64,000 nt of DNA from Clostridiales bacterium (GTDB taxonomy: Bacteria > Bacillota > Clostridia > Saccharofermentanales > Saccharofermentanaceae), in assembly GCA_017617295.1 (NCBI GenBank), contig JAFZWN010000084.1:7142-71141 (forward strand). The letters are read 5' to 3'. Under the pieces are notes generated by a model. That model was not told the DNA's origin, did no database searches, and saw only the letters and a program-made list of their open reading frames with translations. The translations under genes and the position numbers were made by a program. Shown here one piece after another: positions 1,262 through 54,301 of the stretch (positions within the stretch are counted from its first letter, which is position 1; each line of letters opens with the position of its first letter).

Positions 1262-4030
1262 ATGCAAAAAAGACTTATGAAGTCTTGCGCTGCTTTTTTG
1301 GCAGTGCTTACCGGCCTGTCTCTGCTTAAGACGGGAACCGTTTCAGCTGCATCCGTAGAGACGCCGCTTCAGGATGCCGTAGTCGGCGAAGGCGGATCGC
1401 TTACCGTGTCGCTCAGTTCCGGAGTGACCAACCTGATGACCGCGACCGACCCTGTCGTCAATTACGGAGATCCTCTGGATTGTGAGATCGACTGGCATCT
1501 GCCCGATTCTTTTATCCTTAACGAAAATGATGTTCTGACTTACGAACTTCCGCCGGTCATCAATTTCGATTACAAATCCGGAGACCTGATGGACGGTAAT
1601 AAAGATCTCGGGGACTATGAGATAAGCGGAAACCGCATTACCATAACGTATACGTCCTACGAATTCTGCCATCAGAGAGAGAGGCAGGGTCATCTGGGAT
1701 TCAGAGGAAGAGTTACAAATGATCCCGATCCCGCGGGAGATCCCGATACGATCACCGTCTCTTTCCCCGGAGTCCGTGATTTTACCCTTACGGTACAAAG
1801 AAGACCTGTAACTGCCCGCCTTTCAGTTGATAAGGACTATCAGATCCTGGATGATACCAATCATATATACAGATTCAGGATCCCGATAACGGCAACGGGT
1901 AATCAGACGGATATTACGGTAAGAGACACCATGTGGCCCGGTATGGAGCTCTATAACGGCTCTATCGGCTCTATGCCCGTTATCTACTCGGATTACGGAA
2001 TGACCACAGAATTTACCGATCATACGCCTTTTGCGATCGAAGCAGGCGACGGAAGGACATTCTCGTGTACGATAAACAATCTTTCCGACGGTCAGACCGT
2101 TTATGTTTATTATGATGTTCAGGTCAGAGATGAGATGTATGACCTGACGACAGGAGATGCCTGGGTCAGAAGCCAGGGATATGTTACATCGACAGGATAC
2201 TATCCGAGCGGATATAACGGTGTGGTTCCCAACAGGGTGACGGTATACAGTACCGAGGCTCCGGATCCCGTAACCAAAGACAGAGACATATACGGAGCGG
2301 GCAATCAGTTTATCAAGTGGCATTCCGCTCCTGTCGGAAATGAGCTTTATTACGGATATCTGAGGTGGCAGCTTGTCGTAAACAGGATAGATCCGAGTGT
2401 GACCTCCGGTTATATTATTGACACTATTCCCGAAAACAATTCTTTCGACATCTCGAATGTTATCGTCTATGACGGCGACACTTTTACCGGGCGTGATGTT
2501 CTGCAGTATCTTGATATAACGACCTCCACAGTATCCGGTCAGACGCAGATCACTTTCAGGTTTAAAGATCCCATGCTTGCCGATCTTAAGACTGCGGGCA
2601 AAGGCATGTATATAGAATATGTTACCCATGTTGACCGGCAATCGGTTCCGACGCTGAGATATGAAAATACCGCAACGCTTTATCTGGATAACTCGTCGTA
2701 CGGTCCTATAACGGCTGATACGAATTATACAAAACCGGACGATGTGTTCAAGACCGGTGAATATTCTCCCGCTACGGCACCTTATGCGGAATATATCGTT
2801 ATAGTCAATCCTGCTGCGCTTGATCTTGATCCTCAGAGCGACAGGCTTATATTGACCGATACGCCCGGTTCCGCTCTGGATATCGATCTGGGATCCATAC
2901 TCGTGAACGGAGTTGCTCCTGATCGTTCTGATATCAGTTTTGATCTTAATACGCATCAGGTATCGATAACGCTTGATGATGCCACATATTACAGGATCAC
3001 ATACAGGGCAAGGGTAAATCTCCAGCCCGGTTCCAGGCTGGATTCGACTAACGCGGAGAATACATGTGCTCTCACAGGGGTCATCTCCAATCAGGGTGAC
3101 GGAACATTTACTATCAACTCGCGTGTATACAACAATGCCGCCACCTCCTCGTCGAGGATCTCATATGTTACTTATAATGTTATAAAGTATGACGCGGATT
3201 CCAATTCGACGCTTCTTCCGGGAGCTGTTTTTGAGATCTCCGAGGCAACGCTTAACGGAACTTCCGTAACAGGCACCACGGTCATCTCGTCACAGACGAC
3301 GGACACTTACGGATTCGCATCTTTTACGGATCTTCTCAGAGGAACATGTTATATGCTGACCGAGACAGAGGCGCCGACGGGATATGAGCGTGATGCTTCT
3401 CCGAGATTTGTTATCTTTGCCGAGAATGATGCTCTCACATATCCTTCGAGCGTTACCTATAACGGATCTTCATATCCGGTAACGGTTATCAGTGCCGCCA
3501 GATCGTCTTTTGACGATAATATCGGCAATACTCCCGTAAGTACTTCAACGCCCACACCAACGGAACCTGTGAACACACCTGCTGCCTCGACTCCCGCGGT
3601 CACCACGCCGGCAGTTACCACACCGGCAGTTACCACCCCTGTGGATTCGGAGAATACGCCTACACCTTCTGTGGCTACGCCGACCGGTTCTTCGTCTGCT
3701 TCGACGCCTGTGCCTACAGGAGCTGTTTCAACTCCGGTGCCTTCCGTTGTTGCTACGATAACGCCCGCGCCCGCGACACCGACTCCGGCAGATAATTCTT
3801 CTTCGCTTGTCCTGAGTCAGGTAAGAGAACCTTCTCCGACGCCGGCGGATACTTCCACCCCCACGCCGACACCTACGCCGCCTTCTGCGGTAACTTCCTC
3901 GAGTCCTGTAGTAAGTACCGGCGAGATATCGGACGCTTATACTTTGTACGGGTTTATCCTGATCTCGGCCGCCTGCTTATTCTCGGCTGTCAGCAGAGTG
4001 AGAAGACGCAGGGATTATTCCGGGTCGTGA
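1262..4030 (+). CDS. cell-surface adhesin-like protein (signal peptide, Cna-B/SpaA-type fold, P/T-rich stalk, sortase-substrate-like C-terminus)
   Basis: 922-aa ORF with SD AGAGGGGGA ~7 nt upstream. N-terminal signal peptide (..TGTVSAAS). Cna-B-like module YNVIKYDADSNSTLLPGAVFEI..YMLTETEAPTGYE. ~130-aa Pro/Thr/Ser stalk. C-terminus is VSTGE + hydrophobic helix + RVRRRRD tail. Confidence 0.8.
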   Translation: MQKRLMKSCAAFLAVLTGLSLLKTGTVSAASVETPLQDAVVGEGGSLTVSLSSGVTNLMTATDPVVNYGDPLDCEIDWHLPDSFILNENDVLTYELPPVINFDYKSGDLMDGNKDLGDYEISGNRITITYTSYEFCHQRERQGHLGFRGRVTNDPDPAGDPDTITVSFPGVRDFTLTVQRRPVTARLSVDKDYQILDDTNHIYRFRIPITATGNQTDITVRDTMWPGMELYNGSIGSMPVIYSDYGMTTEFTDHTPFAIEAGDGRTFSCTINNLSDGQTVYVYYDVQVRDEMYDLTTGDAWVRSQGYVTSTGYYPSGYNGVVPNRVTVYSTEAPDPVTKDRDIYGAGNQFIKWHSAPVGNELYYGYLRWQLVVNRIDPSVTSGYIIDTIPENNSFDISNVIVYDGDTFTGRDVLQYLDITTSTVSGQTQITFRFKDPMLADLKTAGKGMYIEYVTHVDRQSVPTLRYENTATLYLDNSSYGPITADTNYTKPDDVFKTGEYSPATAPYAEYIVIVNPAALDLDPQSDRLILTDTPGSALDIDLGSILVNGVAPDRSDISFDLNTHQVSITLDDATYYRITYRARVNLQPGSRLDSTNAENTCALTGVISNQGDGTFTINSRVYNNAATSSSRISYVTYNVIKYDADSNSTLLPGAVFEISEATLNGTSVTGTTVISSQTTDTYGFASFTDLLRGTCYMLTETEAPTGYERDASPRFVIFAENDALTYPSSVTYNGSSYPVTVISAARSSFDDNIGNTPVSTSTPTPTEPVNTPAASTPAVTTPAVTTPAVTTPVDSENTPTPSVATPTGSSSASTPVPTGAVSTPVPSVVATITPAPATPTPADNSSSLVLSQVREPSPTPADTSTPTPTPTPPSAVTSSSPVVSTGEISDAYTLYGFILISAACLFSAVSRVRRRRDYSGS

Positions 4031-4050
4031 ATAATCCGGTAAGATCTATA

Positions 4051-4084
4051 CGGGTCGGAGATGATCTCCGGCCCGTTTTTTGTT
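4051..4084 (+). terminator. intrinsic terminator
   Basis: CGGGTCGGAGA-TGA-TCTCCGGCCCG hairpin (one G:U pair) followed by TTTTTTGTTTT, 20 nt after the adhesin stop. Confidence 0.8.
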
Positions 4085-4309
4085 TTCGCAGTGGGGATAC
4101 TTAAGCTCCTGATGCACATTCAACCTATTTTGAAAAAAGTCGTTTCAGGTTGTATCGAGTCCAGGAGCTGATAACGTGCAATACGTGCTCTCCTGAAAAT
4201 AGAAAAATTTTTTCAAGATCTTTCGAATATTCCGGTCAAGTTCTGTGTCTTATAGTCAGATGCACCGAAAAGCAGTGCAAAAATTACGGGATAGACGGAG
4301 GATAATCCT

Positions 4310-5227
4310 ATGAAAAAGATCTTATTAACAGGAATCACGACATGTATCGCTTTAAGCATGCTCACAGGCTGTGGAGCAGGAGCCGGCAACGGCGGAAGGG
4401 AAAGAAGCGGCAGGGAAGCCGGAAGGGATACGGATGTACAGGAGCAGGAAGATGAAGCTGCCGGCAGGGATGCAGACGCACATGAGCATGCAGATACCGG
4501 CATCGGCGCTGCCGTTGAAGGCCCTTTGGAAGTCGGCGACACCGTCGAGTTCGGACACTACGAGCAGGATAACGACACATCAAACGGTCCCGAGGAGATC
4601 GAATGGGAAGTTCTGGCATGCGAGGACGGTAAGGCGCTCCTTATCTCCAGGTATATCCTTGACGGCCGTCAGTTCGATTCCGAGACGGCGAGCGAAGTCT
4701 GCTGGGAGAACAGTGACATCAGGGAGTGGATGAACGGTGAGTTTGTGGAGGAGGCTTTTACGGATGATGAGTATGACGCGATCCTTGATACCGAGCTTTC
4801 CACTCATGACCTGAGAACATCCGGCAATGAATACTACACCACGACGGATCGAGTCTTCCTTATGTCTAACGATGACATGATAGAGTACTACGATTACATA
4901 GTCTTTAATGAGGACACCAGGCAGGGCGGTACCCCCGATCTGATGTGCGAGGCTACCGAATATGCCCAGAGCCATAATGTCTATAATTTTGTATACAGAC
5001 GCAATGAAGTGTTTACCATGGATCATCCGATCTCTCTCGACGGCAGGTGCAGTTCCATGTACTGGCTTCGTGACAGCGGCAATTGCTACGCACTCATTAT
5101 GGGTCTTGGCGGAACGACAGGTGACTGGGACAGGGATCAGTGCAGCTCTGCTCTTCCTTACTACAGAAATATCGACAACGATGAGATGGGAGTCCGTCCC
5201 GCGATATGGGTAAGGGTATCGGAGTGA
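4310..5227 (+). CDS. lipoprotein with DUF6273-like C-terminal domain
   Basis: 305 aa. Signal + lipobox MKKILLTGITTCIALSMLTGC, then an acidic low-complexity linker. C-terminal pattern VEFGHYEQD..IEWEVL..LLISRYIL....VRPAIWV, which I recognise as DUF6273-type. SD GGAGGA upstream. Confidence 0.7.
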   Translation: MKKILLTGITTCIALSMLTGCGAGAGNGGRERSGREAGRDTDVQEQEDEAAGRDADAHEHADTGIGAAVEGPLEVGDTVEFGHYEQDNDTSNGPEEIEWEVLACEDGKALLISRYILDGRQFDSETASEVCWENSDIREWMNGEFVEEAFTDDEYDAILDTELSTHDLRTSGNEYYTTTDRVFLMSNDDMIEYYDYIVFNEDTRQGGTPDLMCEATEYAQSHNVYNFVYRRNEVFTMDHPISLDGRCSSMYWLRDSGNCYALIMGLGGTTGDWDRDQCSSALPYYRNIDNDEMGVRPAIWVRVSE

Positions 5228-44068: not shown

Positions 44069-44082
44069 GCGTGAGAAAAAGA

Positions 44083-44447
44083 TGTACCACGTTTTGCTGA
44101 AAAATAGTGGTTTATATGGTACAGGTATATGGTACATTCGGGCAGATGTACCATATTTTTGCGTTGAACTGCGGATCATATGGTACCGGTATATGGTACA
44201 CGCGGTTGGGAATACTTAACGAGACTTGTCTTTCAGATGTACCACTAAAACCTCAAAAACACCGATCTCTCAGGTACCAACCTCTGGTACATCCGGGCAT
44301 TTGTACCACTAAAATGCCGAAAACACCGATTCCGCTGGTACCAACCTCTGGTACATCCGAAAGACTCCTCGATAATACAAGCTGCATCAATCAGCCTCAT
44401 ACTACTCACCACTCTGGTACATCCGAAAGACTCCTCGAAAATACAAG
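44083..44447. repeat. array of four 54-nt units bounded by TGTACCA...TGGTACA, plus a duplicated 36-nt tail
   Basis: Units are 44083-44136, 44147-44200, 44238-44291 and 44302-44355, each exactly 54 nt. Pairs 1/2 and 3/4 are 64 nt apart. The tail CTCTGGTACATCCGAAAGACTCCTCGA.AATACAAG occurs at 44346-44381 and 44412-44447. Confidence 0.9.
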
Positions 44448-44488
44448 GGGAAAAAGCTGACCGCAACGGCTGCGAAAAATAGTAACGA

Positions 44489-46486: not shown

Positions 46487-46517
46487 CAAAAACGGCCCCG
46501 CCGTGAGTGGCGGGACC
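46487..46517 (-). terminator. intrinsic terminator after rtcB
   Basis: Minus strand: GGTCCCGCC-ACTCAC-GGCGGGGCC followed by GTTTTTG, 10 nt after the rtcB stop. Confidence 0.8.
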
Positions 46518-46526
46518 GCGATGGTG

Positions 46527-47780
46527 TCATCCTTTTCTTGCTGCCTTTTTGAGTTTCCATTCAGGGACCTGATCGTCTGTCGCCTTGAAGTTATAGACCG
46601 GTCTTAAGACCTCGATGATATCGACCGATCCTCTTACGACATCGATGATGTCTTCGAGGGATTTGTATGCCATCGGAGATTCGTCGATCGTGCTCTCGCA
46701 GACCGATGTCGAGTAGATCCCTTCCATCGATCTGATGAAGTCTTCGAGAAGTACCGTGGCCTTGGCTTTTGTCCTCGACATCACTCTTCCCGCGCCGTGG
46801 GGAGCGGAATAGTTCCATTCGGGATTTCCCTTGCCGTACGCCAGGATGGATCCGTCTCTCATGTTGATCGGGATCAGGACTTTTTCCCCTTCGTGTGCCG
46901 CGATGGCACCCTTTCTGAGGATCATCTCGTCCGTATCGATATAGTTATGGACTGTGTGAAAGGATTCTGCTGCTTTAAGTCCGCTCTTATCGAGGATGAT
47001 CTCCGCCATCAGTTCCCTGTTCCTTCTGGCATATCTCTGGCAGATCTTTACATCGTGGAGGTAGTCCTCCATGTAGGTGCCGTAGAGCCAGCAGAGATCT
47101 TCGGGGTAGGCCGCGGACGTCTTCTCATATTCCGCCGCCAATGCCTTCAGAGCGGGCTGGATCTCGGATCTTCTGCCCTGTTCTTTATAGTTCCTGATGA
47201 TCTCTTCTCTTTTTTGGAAGTACTCTTCCTTGCCGCTTTGAAGATCGACCGCGAGAGACTGGTAGATATCGGCCACCTGCTTGCCCAGGTTCCTGCTGCC
47301 GGAGTGGATAACGAGATAGAGTGTCCCGTCTTCCGCTCTGTCGATCTCGATAAAGTGGTTGCCTCCGCCCAGAGTCCCGAGGGATCTGATAAGTCTCCTT
47401 GTATCCTTGAGCTGTCTGAAGCACTTGAGCTCCGAGATATCGAAGTTCTCTTTTCTGCCTTCCCATACGGACTTGCCGGAGGGGATACTGTGGCATACGG
47501 TATCAAAGGCTTCAAGATCGATCTCTTTGACATCAAGCTTAACCGTATACATCCCGCAGCCGATGTCGACACCGACGACGTTAGGGACTACCTTGTCCTT
47601 AACGGTCATCGTGGTGCCGATCGTGCAGCCTGTTCCCGTATGGACATCGGGCATGATCCTTACTTTACATCCTTCCGTGAAGGGCGTATCGAGCATCCCT
47701 TTGATCTGCTCGACCGCTTCGTCTTCACAGACTTTGGCGTAGCATACCGCCTGATTGTATTTTCCTTCAATAGTAAACAT
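46527..47780 (-). CDS. rtcB: RNA 3'-phosphate/2',3'-cyclic-phosphate ligase RtcB
   Basis: 417 aa. Motifs GGGNHFIE, HSGSRNLG and APHGAGR. SD GAGGAG upstream. 18 nt after the SPFH gene. Confidence 0.92.
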   Translation of the reverse strand: MFTIEGKYNQAVCYAKVCEDEAVEQIKGMLDTPFTEGCKVRIMPDVHTGTGCTIGTTMTVKDKVVPNVVGVDIGCGMYTVKLDVKEIDLEAFDTVCHSIPSGKSVWEGRKENFDISELKCFRQLKDTRRLIRSLGTLGGGNHFIEIDRAEDGTLYLVIHSGSRNLGKQVADIYQSLAVDLQSGKEEYFQKREEIIRNYKEQGRRSEIQPALKALAAEYEKTSAAYPEDLCWLYGTYMEDYLHDVKICQRYARRNRELMAEIILDKSGLKAAESFHTVHNYIDTDEMILRKGAIAAHEGEKVLIPINMRDGSILAYGKGNPEWNYSAPHGAGRVMSRTKAKATVLLEDFIRSMEGIYSTSVCESTIDESPMAYKSLEDIIDVVRGSVDIIEVLRPVYNFKATDDQVPEWKLKKAARKG

Positions 47781-47798
47781 TTTCTTTTCTCCTCAGTA

Positions 47799-48902
47799 TT
47801 ATGTCTTTCCGGAAGAGATGAGCTGTGTCAGACGCTCGAGGATATCCCCCGAACCGCCTACGTTGAGGCTTCCGACATTCTCGCAGATCCTCTCCACGTA
47901 TTCGAGCTCCTTGAGCTTATAGAGTGTGGGATTCTCTTCCATGAGCTTTGCCGTGTTAAGAAGCGACCTCGTGGAGGCGACTTCCTCACGTCTTGTTATT
48001 ACGTTGGCCTGAGCCTTTTTCTCGGCTATAAGGACAGTGCTCATTATGTCCCTTACCGCGCCGGGGAGGATGATGTCCCTGACGCCGCAGTCCGTAACTT
48101 CGATATGATATCCGGCGCACTTTTCCTTCATCTTGCCGAAAACAAACTCAGATATACCGTCCTTGTCTTCGAGGATCTGGTCGAGCTTCTGCCTGCCGAC
48201 TATCTCACGGAGAGCCATCTGGGCGACCTGATGCATATAGGCGTTATAATCGGCGAGTGACTCATAAAGAGCCGCGGCGTCGGTTATCCTGTAGTTCAGG
48301 ACGAAGTTGACCCTCAGGGGGACCTTATCGGCCGTGAGTATCTCCTGACCGAGTATGTTCATGGGGATGAGCCTTGTGTCGACGAGCTGTACCTCGACGG
48401 TCTTCTCGGTCCTCCAGAAATAGTGGTCGCCGGGCTGAAGCTCTCTTACGAGCCTGCCGTTTATATAGAGAAGCCCGATCATGAACTTGTCTATGGAATA
48501 GAGCTCGTAGAGGTCGGGATCGATCCTCTCGAAGAGATATCCGGGGAAGTCGGGGGACACTTCTTCCGTGAGGTCGAAAGTATCGAACCCGTTAACTCCG
48601 GCATCCTTTCTGAAAGCGTGCTTTCCGGGCGTACATATGATGCGGTCGAACTTACCGTCGACTGTTCTGATGCAGAGCTGATTATCGAGCAGTTCGATGA
48701 TATCGAAAGCCTCGTTCATGCGTGCATCATGAAGCAGAGTATCTGTAGCGGCTCTCTCCGATACGAGCTCACCCGTGATATCGTGTATCTCTATCTCCTT
48801 TCGTCCCGTGACGAAATATCTGCCGGCATTTACCATCTTTACGAATCTGCCGTCCCTGAACATTAATCCGTACTGTCTTTCGTTAATTACTACTGTTTTC
48901 AT
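47799..48902 (-). CDS. SPFH/band-7 (stomatin/slipin-like) protein with ~170-aa N-terminal extension
   Basis: The C-terminal half is typical SPFH (..LTADKVPLRVNFVLNYRI..ALREIVG..LDQIL..R....V..). GGAGGA lies 7 nt upstream of ATG 48902, and the track ATG 48917 overlaps that SD. Confidence 0.8.
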   Translation of the reverse strand: MKTVVINERQYGLMFRDGRFVKMVNAGRYFVTGRKEIEIHDITGELVSERAATDTLLHDARMNEAFDIIELLDNQLCIRTVDGKFDRIICTPGKHAFRKDAGVNGFDTFDLTEEVSPDFPGYLFERIDPDLYELYSIDKFMIGLLYINGRLVRELQPGDHYFWRTEKTVEVQLVDTRLIPMNILGQEILTADKVPLRVNFVLNYRITDAAALYESLADYNAYMHQVAQMALREIVGRQKLDQILEDKDGISEFVFGKMKEKCAGYHIEVTDCGVRDIILPGAVRDIMSTVLIAEKKAQANVITRREEVASTRSLLNTAKLMEENPTLYKLKELEYVERICENVGSLNVGGSGDILERLTQLISSGKT

Positions 48903-49319
48903 ATATCTTTCCTCCATTAAGAGTTGTTATCTGATAGGGCCTCCCGTACCGGGTAAAGCGGCCGGTATCTTCAGCCTGTACCTCCCGAAGCGGAAACGGT
49001 CACCGTTCTGGCTTACGGTTCGTATCAGGCGGTATCCGTTACCGGACATGTCTTTAAGCGGTACTGCAGTTGCCTGCGCGGGCGGCCTGTTCTTTGATCT
49101 TTACAGATCTGAAACTGAAACCTACGGATTCGAACCGCTTTCTTAACGCTTTTGAGACGTCGTTGATTACCACTTCGTTTCACATACCGTGCTTTTCTGA
49201 AACACCCGCAGAGGAACCTCCCGGAGCAGCGGTGACTTTGACGAATCACCTGCAGGTCTGATCCACGTGCTCATGATAACGGACACGTTTTATGTAATCA
49301 CGGAAAAAAAGTTGCGAGA

Positions 49320-50228
49320 TCAGTTTTCGAAGAGGACAGACTGTTTCCTGATGCGGTCTCTCATGAGATCGATAAATGCATCGGGGGATGTGACCCTTAT
49401 CATCGGACCGAAAGACAGAAGCCGGATAAGAAGCTCCGTCTCGTCGTCCTTGTCATAGCACAGGGTGACTTCGTAAGTGCTCTTTCCGGTCCTCTTGACT
49501 TCCTTCTGAAGGTGCGAGAAATGAAACATCACGCGCTCGAGGGCGTTCCTGGTATCGCGGAGCGTGAAGGTCACCTTTCTGTCGTTTTTATAAGGAGCAG
49601 GCTTGCGCGTGACGGACTCGTCTGTATCGGCAATACTCTTTATGCGGTTGATATTGACTACGCGTGGACCGTCGGCACACATACCGACCGCTCTGAACTT
49701 ATCGTCCTTCTCGGAATATTCCAGCATGTCAGGACGGAAGACTATCCTTCCCGTCCTGCCCCTTCCCGATGATGAGACTATCTCCAGAGTCTTCTTATTC
49801 CTTACCGCATCAAGTACCCGGCGGAAGTTTTCGATATATGAGGGATCGGTAAACGGGTCGCCGTCGGCGTAACTGTCGTAGACATCGTAGTCATCGGAGG
49901 TGAAAAGAGGAGGGACGTCTTCGAGTCCTTCTATGGTCTCTCCGAACAGCATGAATCTCGGATCGAGAGTGACGGATCGAAGCCACATTTTCTGCAATGT
50001 CGTAAGAGGCATCGAGGGCTCTTTGGTGACCGGTGTCGTGCCGTCCTTACGGATCAGCTTATACTCTTCCTCGCGGAACGCTCTTTGTAATGCCAAAGCC
50101 GTCTCGGCGAATCCTTTTGCCTTCGATATCCGCACTATGTCGGATGAAGTCACGGGGCGTCTGACCGCGATCTTCAGAAGATCGGCCACGCAGTTATAGT
50201 ATGCGCCGTAAAGTTCACTGAACAGCAT
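49320..50228 (-). CDS. WYL-domain regulator-like protein (paralogue 2)
   Basis: 302 aa. Starts MLFSELYGAYY. WYL-like strand ..RPDMLEYSEKDDKFRAVGMC....RVVNINRIKSI. WCX-like C-terminus ..YEVTLCYDKDDETELLIRLLSFGPMIRV. 14-nt overlap with paralogue 1. Confidence 0.6.
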   Translation of the reverse strand: MLFSELYGAYYNCVADLLKIAVRRPVTSSDIVRISKAKGFAETALALQRAFREEEYKLIRKDGTTPVTKEPSMPLTTLQKMWLRSVTLDPRFMLFGETIEGLEDVPPLFTSDDYDVYDSYADGDPFTDPSYIENFRRVLDAVRNKKTLEIVSSSGRGRTGRIVFRPDMLEYSEKDDKFRAVGMCADGPRVVNINRIKSIADTDESVTRKPAPYKNDRKVTFTLRDTRNALERVMFHFSHLQKEVKRTGKSTYEVTLCYDKDDETELLIRLLSFGPMIRVTSPDAFIDLMRDRIRKQSVLFEN

Positions 50229-51441
50229 CCGGGCCTCCTTCGTAAAGCGAATACATAGCGGTCAGGTCATCCCTGAACTGCTGCTCTGTCCTTTTGTTAC
50301 TGAAACTGATACGGACGATCCTTCCGATAAAGGTCCTGATCCACGGGATCAGTTCGCTGCAATCATAGACATCCGCTTCGAACCTTGCCAGACCGTCCTC
50401 TATAACGGTCACTTTACCGCAGCGTTTCTCGCGCTGAAGCCTTGCCGGGATATGTTCCTCGAACCTGCCGTAACGCACGTCGAATTCGACATGCTCGATG
50501 TGATCTCCGACGGTCACGCCCCAGATATTCTTTTCCATGCTCTGAAGCTTTTTCCGCGCTCCGGGAAGAAGATCGGTCTGTCCGGTAATACTTATCTTCG
50601 TTATGTGATCGATACGGCACGAGATCATCCTGGCGCGCTTTAATGAGAATGCCAGAAGATGCTGTCTGGCACCCTGTGAACTGATCTTGACCTTAAGTGG
50701 GATCAGTTCTGATGTATTGGTGCCGCCTCTTCTGCTCTCGGTGGTGACTGTCAGAATGCCGTTTTCCCTCATCGCCGTAAAGATAGTAAGCATGACTTCG
50801 CTGTCCATCGTGCCGGTTATATAGTGGTGCTTGAAGCGGAACAGGGGATCGGACGGATCGAGCTTATCCTCGATAAAGGAACCGATGACTCCGCAGGGCA
50901 TGACTTCACTAAAGAACCTCAGAAGATCCTTCGAGGGAAGGGGAGTCTTCGGGCACATCTTATAGTACACGGTACGGCCTTCCCTGCGGCTTACGATAAG
51001 CCCTTCCTGCTCATATTCCCGAAGTTTCTTACGGACTGTGGATTCGTCATAAACACGAGCTTCGCAGAATCCTTCCGAATATCTGTCTATGGAATCGGTT
51101 ATCTGTTTAAGAGTGAGTTCGGAAGCTTCTTCGAGGATATCGAAAAGGATAAAATGCAGCGTGATGTCGCCGTCGGTGAAGCTCTTGGCCTTCCATGATT
51201 TAAACAGGGGATTCGGGCCCTCCTGGCGGCTGTCCATCGAGATGAATACTGTCTTGCCGTCAGAAGTATTCCGGAAAGACATGGACTCCAGAAGCCAGCT
51301 CTCGATCCTTCTTCTGGAATCGTCGTAGCTCCTGGCGCTCTTGTTCGTATATTCGTCCCGGCTCTTGAAGCCGTAGACATAGAACTCGCGCATGTATTCG
51401 CGGATATTATCGTAGTTCTTGATCAGTTCACTGTACGGCAT
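50215..51441 (-). CDS. WYL-domain transcriptional regulator-like protein (paralogue 1)
   Basis: wHTH (LTLKQITDSI). WYL-like ..IPLKVKISSQGARQHLLAFSLKRARMISCRIDHI. WCX-like tail. Start chosen at Met14 (MPYSELIKNY) by analogy with the paralogue. The track ATG is at 51480. Confidence 0.6.
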   Translation of the reverse strand: MPYSELIKNYDNIREYMREFYVYGFKSRDEYTNKSARSYDDSRRRIESWLLESMSFRNTSDGKTVFISMDSRQEGPNPLFKSWKAKSFTDGDITLHFILFDILEEASELTLKQITDSIDRYSEGFCEARVYDESTVRKKLREYEQEGLIVSRREGRTVYYKMCPKTPLPSKDLLRFFSEVMPCGVIGSFIEDKLDPSDPLFRFKHHYITGTMDSEVMLTIFTAMRENGILTVTTESRRGGTNTSELIPLKVKISSQGARQHLLAFSLKRARMISCRIDHITKISITGQTDLLPGARKKLQSMEKNIWGVTVGDHIEHVEFDVRYGRFEEHIPARLQREKRCGKVTVIEDGLARFEADVYDCSELIPWIRTFIGRIVRISFSNKRTEQQFRDDLTAMYSLYEGGPDAVQ

Positions 51442-52258
51442 AGGCTTTCTCGAGGAATCCGGCGACGCTGTCTTCTTCATTGCTCCCGATAACGCCCGTG
51501 GCGGCCTTCTTCGCCTCGGGGAGGGCGTTACTTACCGCATAGGATTCGTCCGCGGCAGCAAACATCGGGAGGTCATTTACCGAGTCTCCGAAAACGACGA
51601 GCCTGTCGAATCCGTATCTCTCCTTGAGCTTCAGAAGGGCTTTGGCCTTGGTGCTGTTACCCGGGCAGATCTCGAGCCAGAATTCCTTGTCGTAGGCGTC
51701 CTTTTGAAATACGCACTCCCATCCGGGATAAGCCTTTACGCGCTCGTAAGCGGGGCGGAGGGCTTCCTCATCGTCGATCAGTGTGAGATACCCGACCTGA
51801 CCGCTGAACATCTCGTCTTTCGTATCCGTGAAGTACATCCTCTTATCGCCCGCGTGATCGTCTATATACTTCTGAAAGCCGGTGACATGGTCACTTTTCA
51901 GACAGACTTTTTCCATACTGTTTCCGACATATCTCGAGACGAATCCGCACTTAGCGGTCTCGGGGAGAAGTTCTCTCAGAAGTGCGACCTCTTCGGAGGT
52001 GAAGAGCGCCTTCTCGAGCATCTCTCCCGTACTGTTGTCGGCCAGTACCGTCCCGTTTCGCGAGATCACGGGGAGCTTCAGCTCGAGACTTCCGCATATC
52101 TCCATCGAGCTCTGTATCGATCTGGCCGTGGCATAGGTAAAGGCCAGACCTTCTCTTACCAGACGGTTTATCGTACTGACGGTGTAATCCGACAGGGTCT
52201 TGTCGTTTCTCATCAGGGTCCCGTCCAGATCCGATACGTAAAGTGTTCTTTTTTCCAT
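51428..52258 (-). CDS. Cof-type HAD-IIB phosphatase
   Basis: 276 aa. Motif I YVSDLDGTLM. Motif IV FGDSVNDLPMF. Confidence 0.85.
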   Translation of the reverse strand: MEKRTLYVSDLDGTLMRNDKTLSDYTVSTINRLVREGLAFTYATARSIQSSMEICGSLELKLPVISRNGTVLADNSTGEMLEKALFTSEEVALLRELLPETAKCGFVSRYVGNSMEKVCLKSDHVTGFQKYIDDHAGDKRMYFTDTKDEMFSGQVGYLTLIDDEEALRPAYERVKAYPGWECVFQKDAYDKEFWLEICPGNSTKAKALLKLKERYGFDRLVVFGDSVNDLPMFAAADESYAVSNALPEAKKAATGVIGSNEEDSVAGFLEKAYAVQ

Positions 52259-52264
52259 GTTTCT

Positions 52265-53149
52265 TTATACTCCCATATCAAAGATACTGATCTGATCGTT
52301 TTTCTCGGGAAGATCGTTCATAAAGGCAAAGCAGTCTTCGGGCTTATACATCAGGCCGCTGCTCCTGCATATATCGCGGAGGAGTGCCGTAAGCTCGCGG
52401 CTGTTCGGCGAAGGTATCTCATAAGCGTAACCGTATGTCCTTATGTATCTGTCCTTAAGGCCCGGGAAATGACGGTCGAGCGCATCGTAGAAATATTCGC
52501 GGTCTCCGTCTCTCAGAGTCAGTCCCATCCCAAAATCGATCACGCCCCTGACGCCCGCATCGACGCAGGCGTTAAGGATCGATCTCACGTTGTCTTCGGT
52601 GTCATTTATGAAGGGAAGGATCGGGGTGAGCCAGGCTATGGTCGGGATGCCCCGCTCTTTCATCTTGTGAAGGACCTCGATCCTTCTTTTTGTGTTACAT
52701 ACATTCGGCTCGAGGATGCTGCACAGATCATCGTCGTATGTGGTGAGCGTCATCTGTACCACGCACTTGGCCTTGCGGTTTATCTCTTCGAGCAGATCGA
52801 TGTCGTGGAGTATGCGGTCGGACTTGGTCTGAAGTGCGACGCCGAAACCGTACTTTTCTATGATCTCGAGGCATTTTCTTGTCAGGCCGAGCTGTTCTTC
52901 GCAGTGCATGTACGGGTCCGACATGGCGCCTGTTCCGATCATGCACTTTTTGCGCTTTGACTTCAGCGCCTTCTCGAGAAGTTCGGGGGCATTTCTTTTG
53001 ACTTCTATATCCTCGAAAGCATGCGTGAACTGATAGCATCTGCTCCTGCTGTCGCAGTAGATACACCCGTGGGTACAGCCGCGGTAGATGTTCATTCCGA
53101 GCCTGCCGCCGCTCCCGTTCAGTATTCCCTTTGCGTCAACAAAATGCAT
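52265..53149 (-). CDS. radical SAM protein, SPL / DNA-photolyase-like (COG1533-type)
   Basis: 294 aa. CxxxCxxC cluster GCTHGCIYC close to the N-terminus. SD GAGGAAG upstream. Confidence 0.75.
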   Translation of the reverse strand: MHFVDAKGILNGSGGRLGMNIYRGCTHGCIYCDSRSRCYQFTHAFEDIEVKRNAPELLEKALKSKRKKCMIGTGAMSDPYMHCEEQLGLTRKCLEIIEKYGFGVALQTKSDRILHDIDLLEEINRKAKCVVQMTLTTYDDDLCSILEPNVCNTKRRIEVLHKMKERGIPTIAWLTPILPFINDTEDNVRSILNACVDAGVRGVIDFGMGLTLRDGDREYFYDALDRHFPGLKDRYIRTYGYAYEIPSPNSRELTALLRDICRSSGLMYKPEDCFAFMNDLPEKNDQISIFDMGV

Positions 53150-53161
53150 ATCTTCCTCTTC

Positions 53162-53623
53162 TCAGTATATCGTCTTCCCGGGGTCGTTGCTGAATGCCTC
53201 GAAAGCCTTTATCGTCTCGTCACGGTCGATACACAGAAGGTCCAGTATGCCGTCCCTGCCGTTTCTGATGTAATCGTATATGAGATCATCGCGGAAGCCT
53301 ATCGCCGCCGCGTCTTCTTTGGTATTCCCGTAATAGACCTTTTTTATGTTGGACCAGATGATCGCCGACAGGCACATGGGGCAGGGGTAGCACGAGGTAT
53401 ATATCTCGCAGCCGCTCAGATCGTGGGAACCGATCCTTCGGCATGCATCCCTAATGGCCGATATCTCGGCATGCGCCGTCGGATCGCAGTTCTTTAATAC
53501 CTGATTGTTTCCTTTTCCTATGACCTTGCCGTCTTTAACGATACACGCACCGAAGGGGCCGCCCTCTCTCGATCTCAGGTTGTCTTCTGCGAGCCTTTTT
53601 GCCGTATTCATGAATTCGTTCAT
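53162..53623 (-). CDS. guaD: guanine deaminase (CDA-fold, GuaD-like)
   Basis: GGPFGA..V....I..G.N, then PTAHAE and CYPCPMC zinc motifs. Colinear with B. subtilis GuaD as I recall it. A TATAAT box lies inside the track's 5' extension, so the start is Met17 at 53623. Confidence 0.75.
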   Translation of the reverse strand: MNEFMNTAKRLAEDNLRSREGGPFGACIVKDGKVIGKGNNQVLKNCDPTAHAEISAIRDACRRIGSHDLSGCEIYTSCYPCPMCLSAIIWSNIKKVYYGNTKEDAAAIGFRDDLIYDYIRNGRDGILDLLCIDRDETIKAFEAFSNDPGKTIY

Positions 53624-53740
53624 ATTCCGATCCCCGTTATTCTTCAAGCTGAAACACATATCATTATACAATAAAGGGAGGAGCTCTGCGTTTTGAAAAT
53701 GTCACTTATCATCGGCAGGCATATATAGTAATATAACTTC

Positions 53741-54301
53741 ATGGCGGATAGTTATTTTCAGAAAACATACGAGGAAGAAGTGGCTAAGATCCCGTTCCTT
53801 TTCAGGTTTACAAGGACAAAGGTGATCGTTCTTATCACCCTTCTTATCATATGGCTCGTTACCGATATCTGTCTCGGAGTTTATATCAAGCAGGATTCCT
53901 ATGATGCCATGACCGTCATCGAAGGACGCGGCATGGCTGTCAGGACGAATTTTGATTCATGGGCAGTCTTTACCGCAGCCAACATCGCCCTCGTACCGAT
54001 CCTTCTGTGGCCGGTGGTCGGCATATGGTTAGACAGGAAAGCTTTCAGGCAGGCATCAAAGCTGACGGCTCTTCATTCCGACTGGGAGAGGATGCAGAAC
54101 AGAAAGGAAGCGAGCCAGATCCGCGAGGAAGTCACAAAGACGACTGAAGCTAATCTGATGAAAAAGCTCGAGAATAAAGCCGAGTTTTGCCCGGTCTGCG
54201 GACTGTTGATACTGCCTGAGGATGGATATTGCCGGACCTGTAATCCGCCGGTCACTGAAGACTCCGGAGATCAGGATACAGAGGAGTTGCCGGATATCTG
54301 A
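53741..54301 (+). CDS. membrane protein with C-terminal zinc ribbon
   Basis: 186 aa. Two TM helices, a coiled region, then CPVC..(10)..CRTC. Confidence 0.55.
   Translation: MADSYFQKTYEEEVAKIPFLFRFTRTKVIVLITLLIIWLVTDICLGVYIKQDSYDAMTVIEGRGMAVRTNFDSWAVFTAANIALVPILLWPVVGIWLDRKAFRQASKLTALHSDWERMQNRKEASQIREEVTKTTEANLMKKLENKAEFCPVCGLLILPEDGYCRTCNPPVTEDSGDQDTEELPDI

Follow-up and report, generated by a model that had tools for sequence, protein, structure and literature searches.

A system in which a Band-7 gene is coupled to rtcB and to a tRNA-like RNA ('b7a-tRNA') has been predicted by comparative genomics (Burroughs & Aravind, Nucleic Acids Res 2016 44:8525, PMC5062991) and is described in later work as a proposed functional parallel of Rsr-YrlA. 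In the passages of later papers that cite this prediction, YrlA and b7a-tRNA are said to exchange partners sometimes, b7a-tRNA is described as not validated, and WYL transcription factors are stated to regulate RNA-repair pathways; since the 2016 paper is the source cited for this last statement, the WYL link was probably noted there already. The best-described relative is the rsr-yrlBA-rtcBA operon of Salmonella, which is under the control of RtcR (Chen 2013; Hughes et al. 2020), and for P. aeruginosa a 2026 report places an SPFH gene within the rtc locus that RtcR controls. Here we analyse a cassette of this general kind in a 64,000-nucleotide (nt) stretch of a Clostridiales bacterium (GenBank assembly GCA_017617295.1, contig JAFZWN010000084.1, positions 7,142 to 71,141 of the forward strand; hereafter the window, numbered from its first letter). 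In the window, two genes for WYL-domain regulators (WYL1 and WYL2) are followed by a 417-nt gap, an SPFH/Band-7 gene and rtcB, all on the minus strand, with gene positions taken from a six-frame list of open reading frames (ORFs) and Pfam. A reasonably probable reading, in our view, is that of an RtcB ribonucleoprotein operon under WYL control, in which a damage-sensing heteromer acts as regulator and the RNA, the SPFH oligomer and RtcB would make up a repair particle. The core cassette was thus predicted in 2016 and is still uncharacterised experimentally; no experimental study of an RtcB/WYL/SPFH cassette was found in the literature.

Set against the b7a-tRNA system, the locus shares a Band-7 gene beside a co-oriented rtcB, as well as a spread over several phyla that includes Bacteroidota, and a candidate tRNA-like RNA lies next to the Band-7 gene. 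By contrast, the RNA of the window and of most Clostridia is ~360–450 nt long with a covarying 3' domain that is not tRNA-like, and in the window the tRNA-like part is cut down to a T-arm and loop mimics. The Salmonella operon offers a second comparison, as it too combines RtcB with an RNA-binding scaffold, tRNA-mimicking RNAs and a dedicated nucleic-acid-sensing regulator, and Bacteroidota relatives of the present locus match the Rfam YrlA model, below its gathering score. The two differ in that the scaffold here is SPFH and there Ro60/TROVE, in that a WYL pair at a sigma-A-type promoter stands where Salmonella has a CARF-AAA+ sigma-54 activator, and in that RtcA is not in the window locus and the window RNA has no YrlA match. 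By analogy, the gap RNA would be to this cassette what the Y-RNA-like YrlA is to Rsr-RtcB operons. The abstract of the 2016 study by Burroughs and Aravind reportedly mentions both kinds of module, Rot/TROVE and SPFH/Band-7, each with its own non-coding RNA, YRNAs in the one case and a novel tRNA-like molecule in the other.

Conservation of the cassette was assessed from both of its sides. On the SPFH side, one genome per species was used, and 80 SPFH loci were tabulated by tblastn, with the Firmicutes fractions calculated from those loci that had enough flanking sequence. A WYL pair was present in 40/47 Firmicutes SPFH loci (35 co-directional, 5 on the opposite strand). The script counted an rtcB directly after SPFH in 37/62 Firmicutes loci, a figure that rises to ~40/62 with the addition of loci L055 and L061, where rtcB is abutting, and of L041, where it is more distant, and three further SPFH loci carry an rtcB of distant type upstream. 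Outside the Firmicutes (mostly Bacteroidota) rtcB adjoined SPFH in 6/9 loci, and the Bacteroidota loci combine SPFH and a distant rtcB without the WYL pair. The SPFH loci span Oscillospiraceae, Lachnospiraceae, Christensenellaceae and Erysipelotrichaceae, and include Oscillibacter valericigenes and Dielma fastidiosa.

On the WYL side, a search of metagenomes with a WYL1 profile yielded 43 loci with at least 3.2 kb of downstream sequence. All 43 possessed WYL2 and 35 possessed rtcB, while the genes following the pair varied: rtcB alone (11 loci), SPFH-rtcB (9), DUF2828-rtcB (9), rtcB-DUF2828 (6), DUF2828 only (3) or none of these (5). The alternative partner was recognised as a DUF2828+DUF7788 protein in L090 (4111–5568, minus strand), and loci of this set further comprise L091 (9827–11478) and L092–L171; DUF2828 is presumably a relative of the TROVE domain found in TEP1 and Ro. 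The WYL pair, together with the 20-nt putative operator described below, fronts such SPFH-less operons as well, including ones with tRNA-like RNAs (scored by Rfam in the DUF2828-type loci), a DUF2828/DUF7788 protein and rtcB. Because rtcB is retained in 35/43 loci while its partner genes vary, these neighbourhoods indicate that the WYL pair is specifically tied to RtcB and that the scaffold protein is exchangeable (SPFH, DUF2828 or neither). The linkage of WYL pair, RNA, SPFH and rtcB that the initial annotation described in this DNA is thus strongly conserved in other genomes. Individual loci showed further variation. In L034 (7071–8288), a class-I peptide release factor (PCRF + RF-1) occupies the usual place of rtcB after SPFH, which brings to mind the known RtcB-PrfH pairing, and L016 carries an Rfam group II intron match downstream of rtcB.

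The regulators are encoded by WYL1 (50215–51441; 408 amino acids (aa) from 51441, within a longest ORF of 50215–51480) and WYL2 (49320–50228; 302 aa), the latter with WYL and WCX regions behind an N-terminal 125 aa of unknown fold. Their assignment does not come from Pfam directly: WYL1 itself had no Pfam match, and WYL2 matched WCX at 2.6e-4, below the curated cut-off. The PADLOC WYL model, by contrast, matched both (WYL1 residues 209–376, 1.1e-7; WYL2 residues 127–295, 4.5e-10). Among orthologues, Pfam detected WYL in 25/28 WYL1 sequences, and WCX in 18 and WYL in 7 of 29 WYL2 sequences. Single-sequence searches of either protein against PDB sequences gave no WYL match. When profiles were used (177,635 PDB sequences), the top matches of WYL2 were BrxR and PafBC, and those of WYL1 included SmtB/ArsR, PafB and PafC, each match being marginal alone and located in the correct domain. 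The AlphaFold model built for WYL1 had an overall predicted local distance difference test (pLDDT) score of 58.5, with the helix-turn-helix (HTH) and the C-terminal half mostly at 70–90, and its 32 best Foldseek matches in the PDB were all WYL regulators (E ~1e-9), among them PafBC on RNA polymerase (1.5e-9) and DriD (2.2e-9); BrxR, CapW and a CRISPR-associated WYL protein were also matched. The two families are distant paralogues of one another across WYL+WCX (hhalign E 6.7e-5), as the initial annotation had supposed. Since PADLOC, the orthologue Pfam counts, the profiles and the WYL1 structure model agree, the WYL-domain identity of both regulators is sound despite the weak Pfam scores. A winged HTH was placed at ~residues 100–165 of WYL1 by weak ArsR/SmtB/PaaX-like matches and by structural alignments with PafB and DriD that cover the full length. 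Of the architecture of HTH, WYL and WCX that had been read into both proteins, WYL and WCX hold in both, whereas an HTH is supported in WYL1 only and none was detected in WYL2. As a separate observation, residues 1–95 of WYL1 form a strongly conserved additional N-terminal region, YSELIKNFEKIR.YMREFYVYGFKSR..Y..KSARSYD.ERRRIESWL, which matched no family and was modelled with low confidence.

The DNA on which this pair would act lies at the start of the gap between WYL2 and SPFH (48903–49319). We read this part of the gap as a sigma-A-type promoter, with its -35 position and upstream DNA as the presumed operator of the WYL pair. An invariant 20-nt element, TCGCAACTTTTTTTCCGTGA (49317–49298), spans the -35 position (GTGATT in the window, 49301–49296) and the DNA upstream of it, and lies at a fixed spacing, kept in ~55 loci, from the -10 hexamer TATCAT (49278–49273). 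The 20-mer TCGCARCTTTTTTTCCGTGA has a single match in the 64-kb window, with 0.01 expected by chance, and recurs exactly in 35 other loci whose proteins are just ~50% identical. As judged from the gap alignment and a pattern search, ~55 loci share one layout, [GT]TTCGCA[AG]C-T7-CCGTGA, 17–19 nt, (TGn)TAnAAT, most relatives having the extended -10 (TGnTAnAAT). In WYL-side loci the element stands 8–35 nt after WYL2, whichever genes come next; in other loci it is found only beside RtcB-type cargo or WYL genes, and L078 has a second copy, with its own -10, before a divergent WYL operon. In many loci the element is also the 3' half of a terminator-like hairpin that closes the WYL operon. The idea that the GTTCGCARC-T7 block is solely the terminator of that operon was rejected, as the window, L081/L082 and divergent loci lack the 5' half of the hairpin, and as the block recurs before the divergent WYL operon of L078.

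Such an invariant promoter element fits direct control by the WYL pair. PafBC and DriD bind at the -35 position, and the binding site in PafBC promoters is placed there just as the 20-nt element is here. Activation is the favoured mode because the 20-nt site replaces a proper -35. The initial annotation had a WYL heteromer replacing RtcR as the damage sensor of the operon; given the conserved linkage, the RtcB specificity (rtcB in 35/43 loci) and the invariant promoter element that the loci share, a WYL pair in the place of RtcR is the best reading, whereas the signal and the sign of regulation are parts of that proposal that we infer. In L065 (2435–4698), two copies of the operator flank a 550-aa ORF (2976–4628), an arrangement that looks like a mobile insertion directly behind the promoter.

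What the pair senses is the point on which the strongest competing explanation bears. PafBC of mycobacteria and DriD of Caulobacter share the wHTH-WYL-WCX architecture, are the best structural matches of WYL1, and are activators that respond to single-stranded DNA (ssDNA); moreover, pafB-pafC is a tandem paralogous pair, as is the pair here. The cassette might accordingly be one arm of a LexA-independent DNA-damage response, with a PafBC/DriD-like, ssDNA-sensing WYL pair and with RtcB handling damage-induced tRNA cleavage or even DNA 3'-phosphate ends. This explanation, which concerns the signal only, is possible if on the unlikely side. It gains from the induction of the Salmonella rtc operon by DNA-damaging agents, which proceeds via tRNA cleavage, from the ability of RtcB to act on DNA ends, and from the operon context of the window's WYL pair, which includes genes for an SplB-like radical SAM protein and a deaminase. 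However, that upstream operon is not conserved, and the 20-nt element is restricted to this cassette in the 64-kb window and to RtcB-type cargo or WYL genes elsewhere, which argues for a dedicated rather than a global regulator. The identity to PafBC and DriD is furthermore only ~14%, so that their ligand specificity is not transferable. The proteins differ in other respects too, WYL1 having the additional ~95-aa N-terminal region and WYL2 no detected HTH, and the target here is an RNA-repair operon, not a DNA-repair regulon.

Between the promoter and SPFH lies a structured RNA of ~360 nt (49266–48903, with the 5' end predicted), either a leader of the SPFH-rtcB transcript or a non-coding RNA processed from it. 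Conserved blocks run along the whole gap in >40 loci. In folding energy the gap does not stand out (z = -1.23), and for this reason thermodynamics was dropped and the structure was argued from covariation; the initial description of the gap as structured thus held on covariation and failed on folding energy. Comparison across loci indicates that the gap encodes a genuine structured RNA. Alignment of the whole RNA with MAFFT followed by RNAalifold gave local helices only, and domain-wise alignment worked.

The clearest case is the 3' domain (49064–48946), for which covariation supports four nested helices. RNAalifold identified 31 pairs, 28 of them with compensatory changes. Across 40 sequences, 86.5% of cells were paired, versus 62.9% when shuffled and ~41% with slid partners, and double-change cells numbered 317 versus 100. 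The window forms 26/31 of these pairs, and its own minimum-energy fold yields the same helices. Unpaired stretches within the domain are conserved as well: GGAUACCG (49037–49030), GCCA, CCGC, CUSAAG and GCCGC. Long-range pairings of GUAUGCC with GGAUACCG, and of GCGGUGC with downstream blocks, were tried and failed across loci.

The tRNA-like module lies further 5'. A T-arm, GTTCGAATC / GGUUCGAAUCC, is found 250–450 nt upstream of SPFH in most loci, and its stem covaries; in the window it is GCGG-UUCGAAU-CCGU, with a 4-bp stem (49138–49124). In 42/43 relatives a hairpin, built from 38 different stem sequences, comes immediately after the T-arm, and in 41/43 a second small hairpin comes next, with GG in its loop in 33/43; shuffled sequences gave 16.8, 12.3 and 2.5 against these values of 42, 41 and 33. 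This order of T-arm, closed acceptor-like stem and D-arm is, as read from the alignments, that of the permuted tRNA mimic seen in YrlA. In the gaps of L014, L016, L060 and L070 a tRNA is called by ARAGORN or Rfam, and the Bacteroidota loci L079 and L070 score 43.5 and 35.3 bits (E 2.5e-6 and 5.7e-4) against the Rfam YrlA model (RF02553), whose gathering score is 69. In the window itself, Rfam (E<=1, 44.0–54.5 kb) and ARAGORN returned no match, which holds for YrlA (RF02553, E<=1) and for a canonical tRNA (ARAGORN, RF00005) alike. A canonical cloverleaf drawn by hand at 49182–49116 was rejected, its acceptor pairing not being kept in the alignment of the window's subclade.

That subclade alignment, which comprises seven sequences, supports two hairpins flanking the T-arm. 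The first, GACGU-CUCAAAA-GCGUU (49161–49145), is anticodon-arm-like with a 7-nt loop; CUCAAAA is present in 6/7 subclade members, and the stem covaries (UGG/CCA, CGG/CCG, UGU/ACA, ACG/CGU). The second, GAUC-UGUAAA-GAUC (49109–49096), has an anticodon-loop-like U-G-U and a stem that covaries likewise (GAUC/GAUC, UUCGA/UCGAA, CAAAU/AUUUG, CCGGA/UCCGG). Closer to the 5' end, hairpin P2 (49250–49231) is visible in alignments and hairpin P3 (49230–49202) has covarying pairs, with counts of AU 24/GC 15/CG 3 at one pair and AU 18/CG 11/GC 6/UA 3 at another. Elsewhere, the gaps of L005, L008, L016, L024 and L088 contain 7-nt loops CUGUNAA with all four N (GUC, GUA, GUG, GUU), and other subgroups have a second T-arm-like hairpin in place of the U-G-U loop. 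U-G-U is the signature of queuosine-family tRNAs, which are substrates of TGT and targets of colicin E5.

Whether such an RNA acts in trans may be questioned from its position. By analogy with yrlBA of Salmonella it could be processed from the operon transcript, or else it is a leader. An explanation that we regard as unlikely takes it as purely a cis-regulatory leader of SPFH-rtcB, riboswitch-like, tRNA-sensing or a site of SPFH/RtcB feedback, whose tRNA-like arm would bind a cellular factor reporting tRNA status, with no trans-acting partner RNA. The RNA does lie between the promoter and the Shine-Dalgarno sequence (SD) without an intervening terminator, its 3' domain ends ~30 nt ahead of the SD, immediately before which a complementary run of pyrimidines recurs, and conserved unpaired loops such as GGAUACCG resemble contacts for a ligand or partner. 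Loci with the same regulator, however, place tRNA-like RNAs after rtcB or between genes, or have rtcB following the promoter without any RNA, so the position of the RNA relative to the coding genes is not fixed. In Bacteroidota the RNA takes the form of tandem YrlA-like modules, and in Salmonella YrlA itself stands alone as an RNA; no riboswitch or T-box match was found with Rfam. On this evidence an RNA that works as a partner of the encoded proteins is preferred over a leader alone.

Very unlikely is a conflict (anti-toxin or anti-phage) island in which anticodon-loop mimics bait anticodon nucleases, the cleavage products activate the WYL pair and RtcB reseals, for although the patchy distribution with swapped partner genes, two copies on contigs classed as viral, the loops CUGUNAA with all four N alongside the recurring CUCAAAA, and the frequent control of defence systems by WYL regulators (BrxR, CapW) would suit it, no PADLOC model matches SPFH or RtcB in the window, U-G-U loops occur in only some subgroups, no nuclease or toxin gene is linked, and the 'viral' contigs may be host DNA beside prophages. 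Each of these rivals is compatible with part of the favoured explanation.

The SPFH protein (47799–48902; 367 aa from 48902, longest ORF 47799–48917) is preceded by an SD that can be read in the sequence (GGAGGA, 48915–48910). It matches Pfam Band_7 over residues 147–312 (2.9e-32), and its family, annotated 'slipin family protein', returned 7920 matches, typically ~50% identical across 97–99% of the length. Because homologues match over this length, the N-terminal extension is a family trait; what had been noted as an unusual extension of ~170 aa is ~140 aa long and kept in full in thousands of homologues. No transmembrane segment was detected in the protein (the maximum 19-residue Kyte-Doolittle mean is 1.18, inside the SPFH domain), and 15 homologues likewise had no hydrophobic window of membrane grade. 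The AlphaFold (AF2) model (pLDDT 79.5, with the first 290 residues near 90) runs from three N-terminal beta modules through the SPFH domain to long C-terminal helices. In Foldseek searches, stomatin (4.6e-16), HflK/C and prohibitin ranked first over ~230–250 columns, and the longest alignments were to the major vault protein (MVP; 464–481 columns, E down to 2.8e-11), because MVP also matches the N-terminal repeats. From its model, the protein is best read as soluble, perhaps ring- or cage-forming. The earlier view of it as a membrane scaffold is left unsupported by the lack of a hydrophobic segment and by a model whose longest alignment is with the soluble MVP. It shares the SPFH domain with stomatin, HflK/C and flotillin, and differs from them in having no N-terminal transmembrane helix or hydrophobic hairpin and instead a beta-rich N-terminus modelled at pLDDT ~90.

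The likeness to the vault (MVP, vault RNA and TEP1) extends to the beta-repeat modules, SPFH 'shoulder' and long helices of the model, and to the encoding of the SPFH protein with a small structured RNA. Against this, there are three repeats versus nine in MVP, on the SPFH part the scores of stomatin and HflK/C are higher, and cage formation is hypothetical. A bacterial vault-like particle, in which SPFH oligomer and RNA house or recruit RtcB and the U-G-U loops serve as sentinels for anticodon nucleases, with the cleavage products switching on the WYL heterodimer, is a highly improbable proposal. Were it true, SPFH and DUF2828 (Ro/TEP1-like) would be interchangeable shells of one machine, and both vault and Ro-Y RNA particles would have a prokaryotic root.

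The favoured mechanism asks for less. WYL1 and WYL2 would form a PafBC-like heteromer that occupies the 20-nt element. Their WYL domains would recognise nucleic-acid damage in the form of RNA fragments, possibly ending in 2',3'-cyclic phosphate, or of ssDNA, and signal binding would turn the promoter on. The RNA, excised from the transcript or acting within it as a tRNA mimic, would bind the SPFH oligomer, as YrlA does with Rsr/Ro60 or vault RNA in MVP particles, and the SPFH-RNA particle may then assist RtcB in locating or retaining the cleaved tRNA or rRNA that it reseals.

Several observations weigh against this mechanism. Its support is wholly computational, the cassette being known here from sequence and models. 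About one third of the SPFH loci have no adjacent rtcB, and unrelated genes stand in its place. Overall confidence in the WYL1 model is low (pLDDT 58.5), and no HTH was detected in WYL2 when its first 125 residues were searched. The WYL pair could be a repressor, as BrxR and CapW are, since extended -10 promoters need no -35. The tRNA-like module of the window is degenerate, with a T-stem of 4 pairs and neither the adjacent acceptor-like hairpin nor the GG-loop D-arm, and neither ARAGORN nor Rfam calls such a module there; in addition, with no terminator between the RNA and SPFH, the RNA may be a cis-acting leader only. Finally, the MVP match has modest TM-scores (0.42 / 0.24).

Relative to the 2016 prediction, the present analysis adds a putative invariant operator, a WYL pair that appears to be a dedicated RtcB regulator also serving DUF2828-type and scaffold-less operons, the size of the RNA with its covarying 3' domain, for which there is no Rfam family, and the modelled soluble, vault-protein-like nature of the SPFH partner. 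The substrates of bacterial RtcB, and its company of tRNA-mimicking RNAs and scaffolds, are still unsettled, and the cassette is a compact version of this problem that is very common in gut and rumen Clostridia. The ligand of a dedicated WYL sensor pair would define the damage signal, and the SPFH protein would stand out in its superfamily as one of the rare members not tied to a membrane. One regulator with SPFH- or DUF2828-type cargo amounts to a natural experiment favouring functional equivalence of the scaffolds. Cultured hosts are available in Oscillibacter valericigenes Sjm18-20, with the locus at ~466.6–481.7 kb of AP012044.1, and in Dielma fastidiosa JC13.

The gene boundaries rest on starts that are consistent across the families. 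Homologue alignment and independent gene calls, the latter taken from metagenome contigs with an identical RtcB, place the SPFH start at M6 (48902) and the WYL1 start at 51441. With these starts, the 14-nt overlap of WYL1 and WYL2, the 417-nt gap, the 18-nt spacing between SPFH and rtcB and the spacings of the upstream operon given in the initial annotation were all reproduced. The rtcB gene (46527–47780) encodes a 417-aa RNA 3'-phosphate/2',3'-cyclic-phosphate ligase (Pfam RtcB 5.7e-61) that also matches NCBIfam RtcB-family models below their equivalog cut-offs, and is closed by a strong intrinsic terminator at 46519–46492 (an 11-pair stem, 9 of them G-C, then TTTTGT), which confirms the terminator proposed there. 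Among genes from 44.5 to 54.3 kb, Pfam found no RtcR (CARF-AAA+) or RtcA domains.

Upstream of the regulators, Pfam and NCBIfam identify a Cof-type HAD hydrolase (51428–52258), a radical SAM protein of the PA0069/Rv2578c type (SplB-like; 52265–53149) and a TadA-like deaminase (53162–53671), with spacings of 12 nt, 6 nt and a 14-nt overlap. These genes overlap or nearly abut the WYL pair here and are not its neighbours elsewhere in the tblastn locus table; the operon that had been proposed as its context is confined to this genome. Beyond the deaminase, a divergent 186-aa ORF on the plus strand (53741–54301) contains hydrophobic segments and, at its C-terminus, a CxxC...CxxC motif; its holin-like Pfam match is weak and under the cut-off (9.2e-4). 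On the other side of the cassette, a direct-repeat array with units of ~62–66 nt (44080–44450) lies between a TetR-like gene and a Na/Pi-cotransporter-PhoU gene; each repeat is bounded by inverted TGTACCA...TGGTACA cores, and the array may represent either clustered sites for a regulator or a small repeat element.

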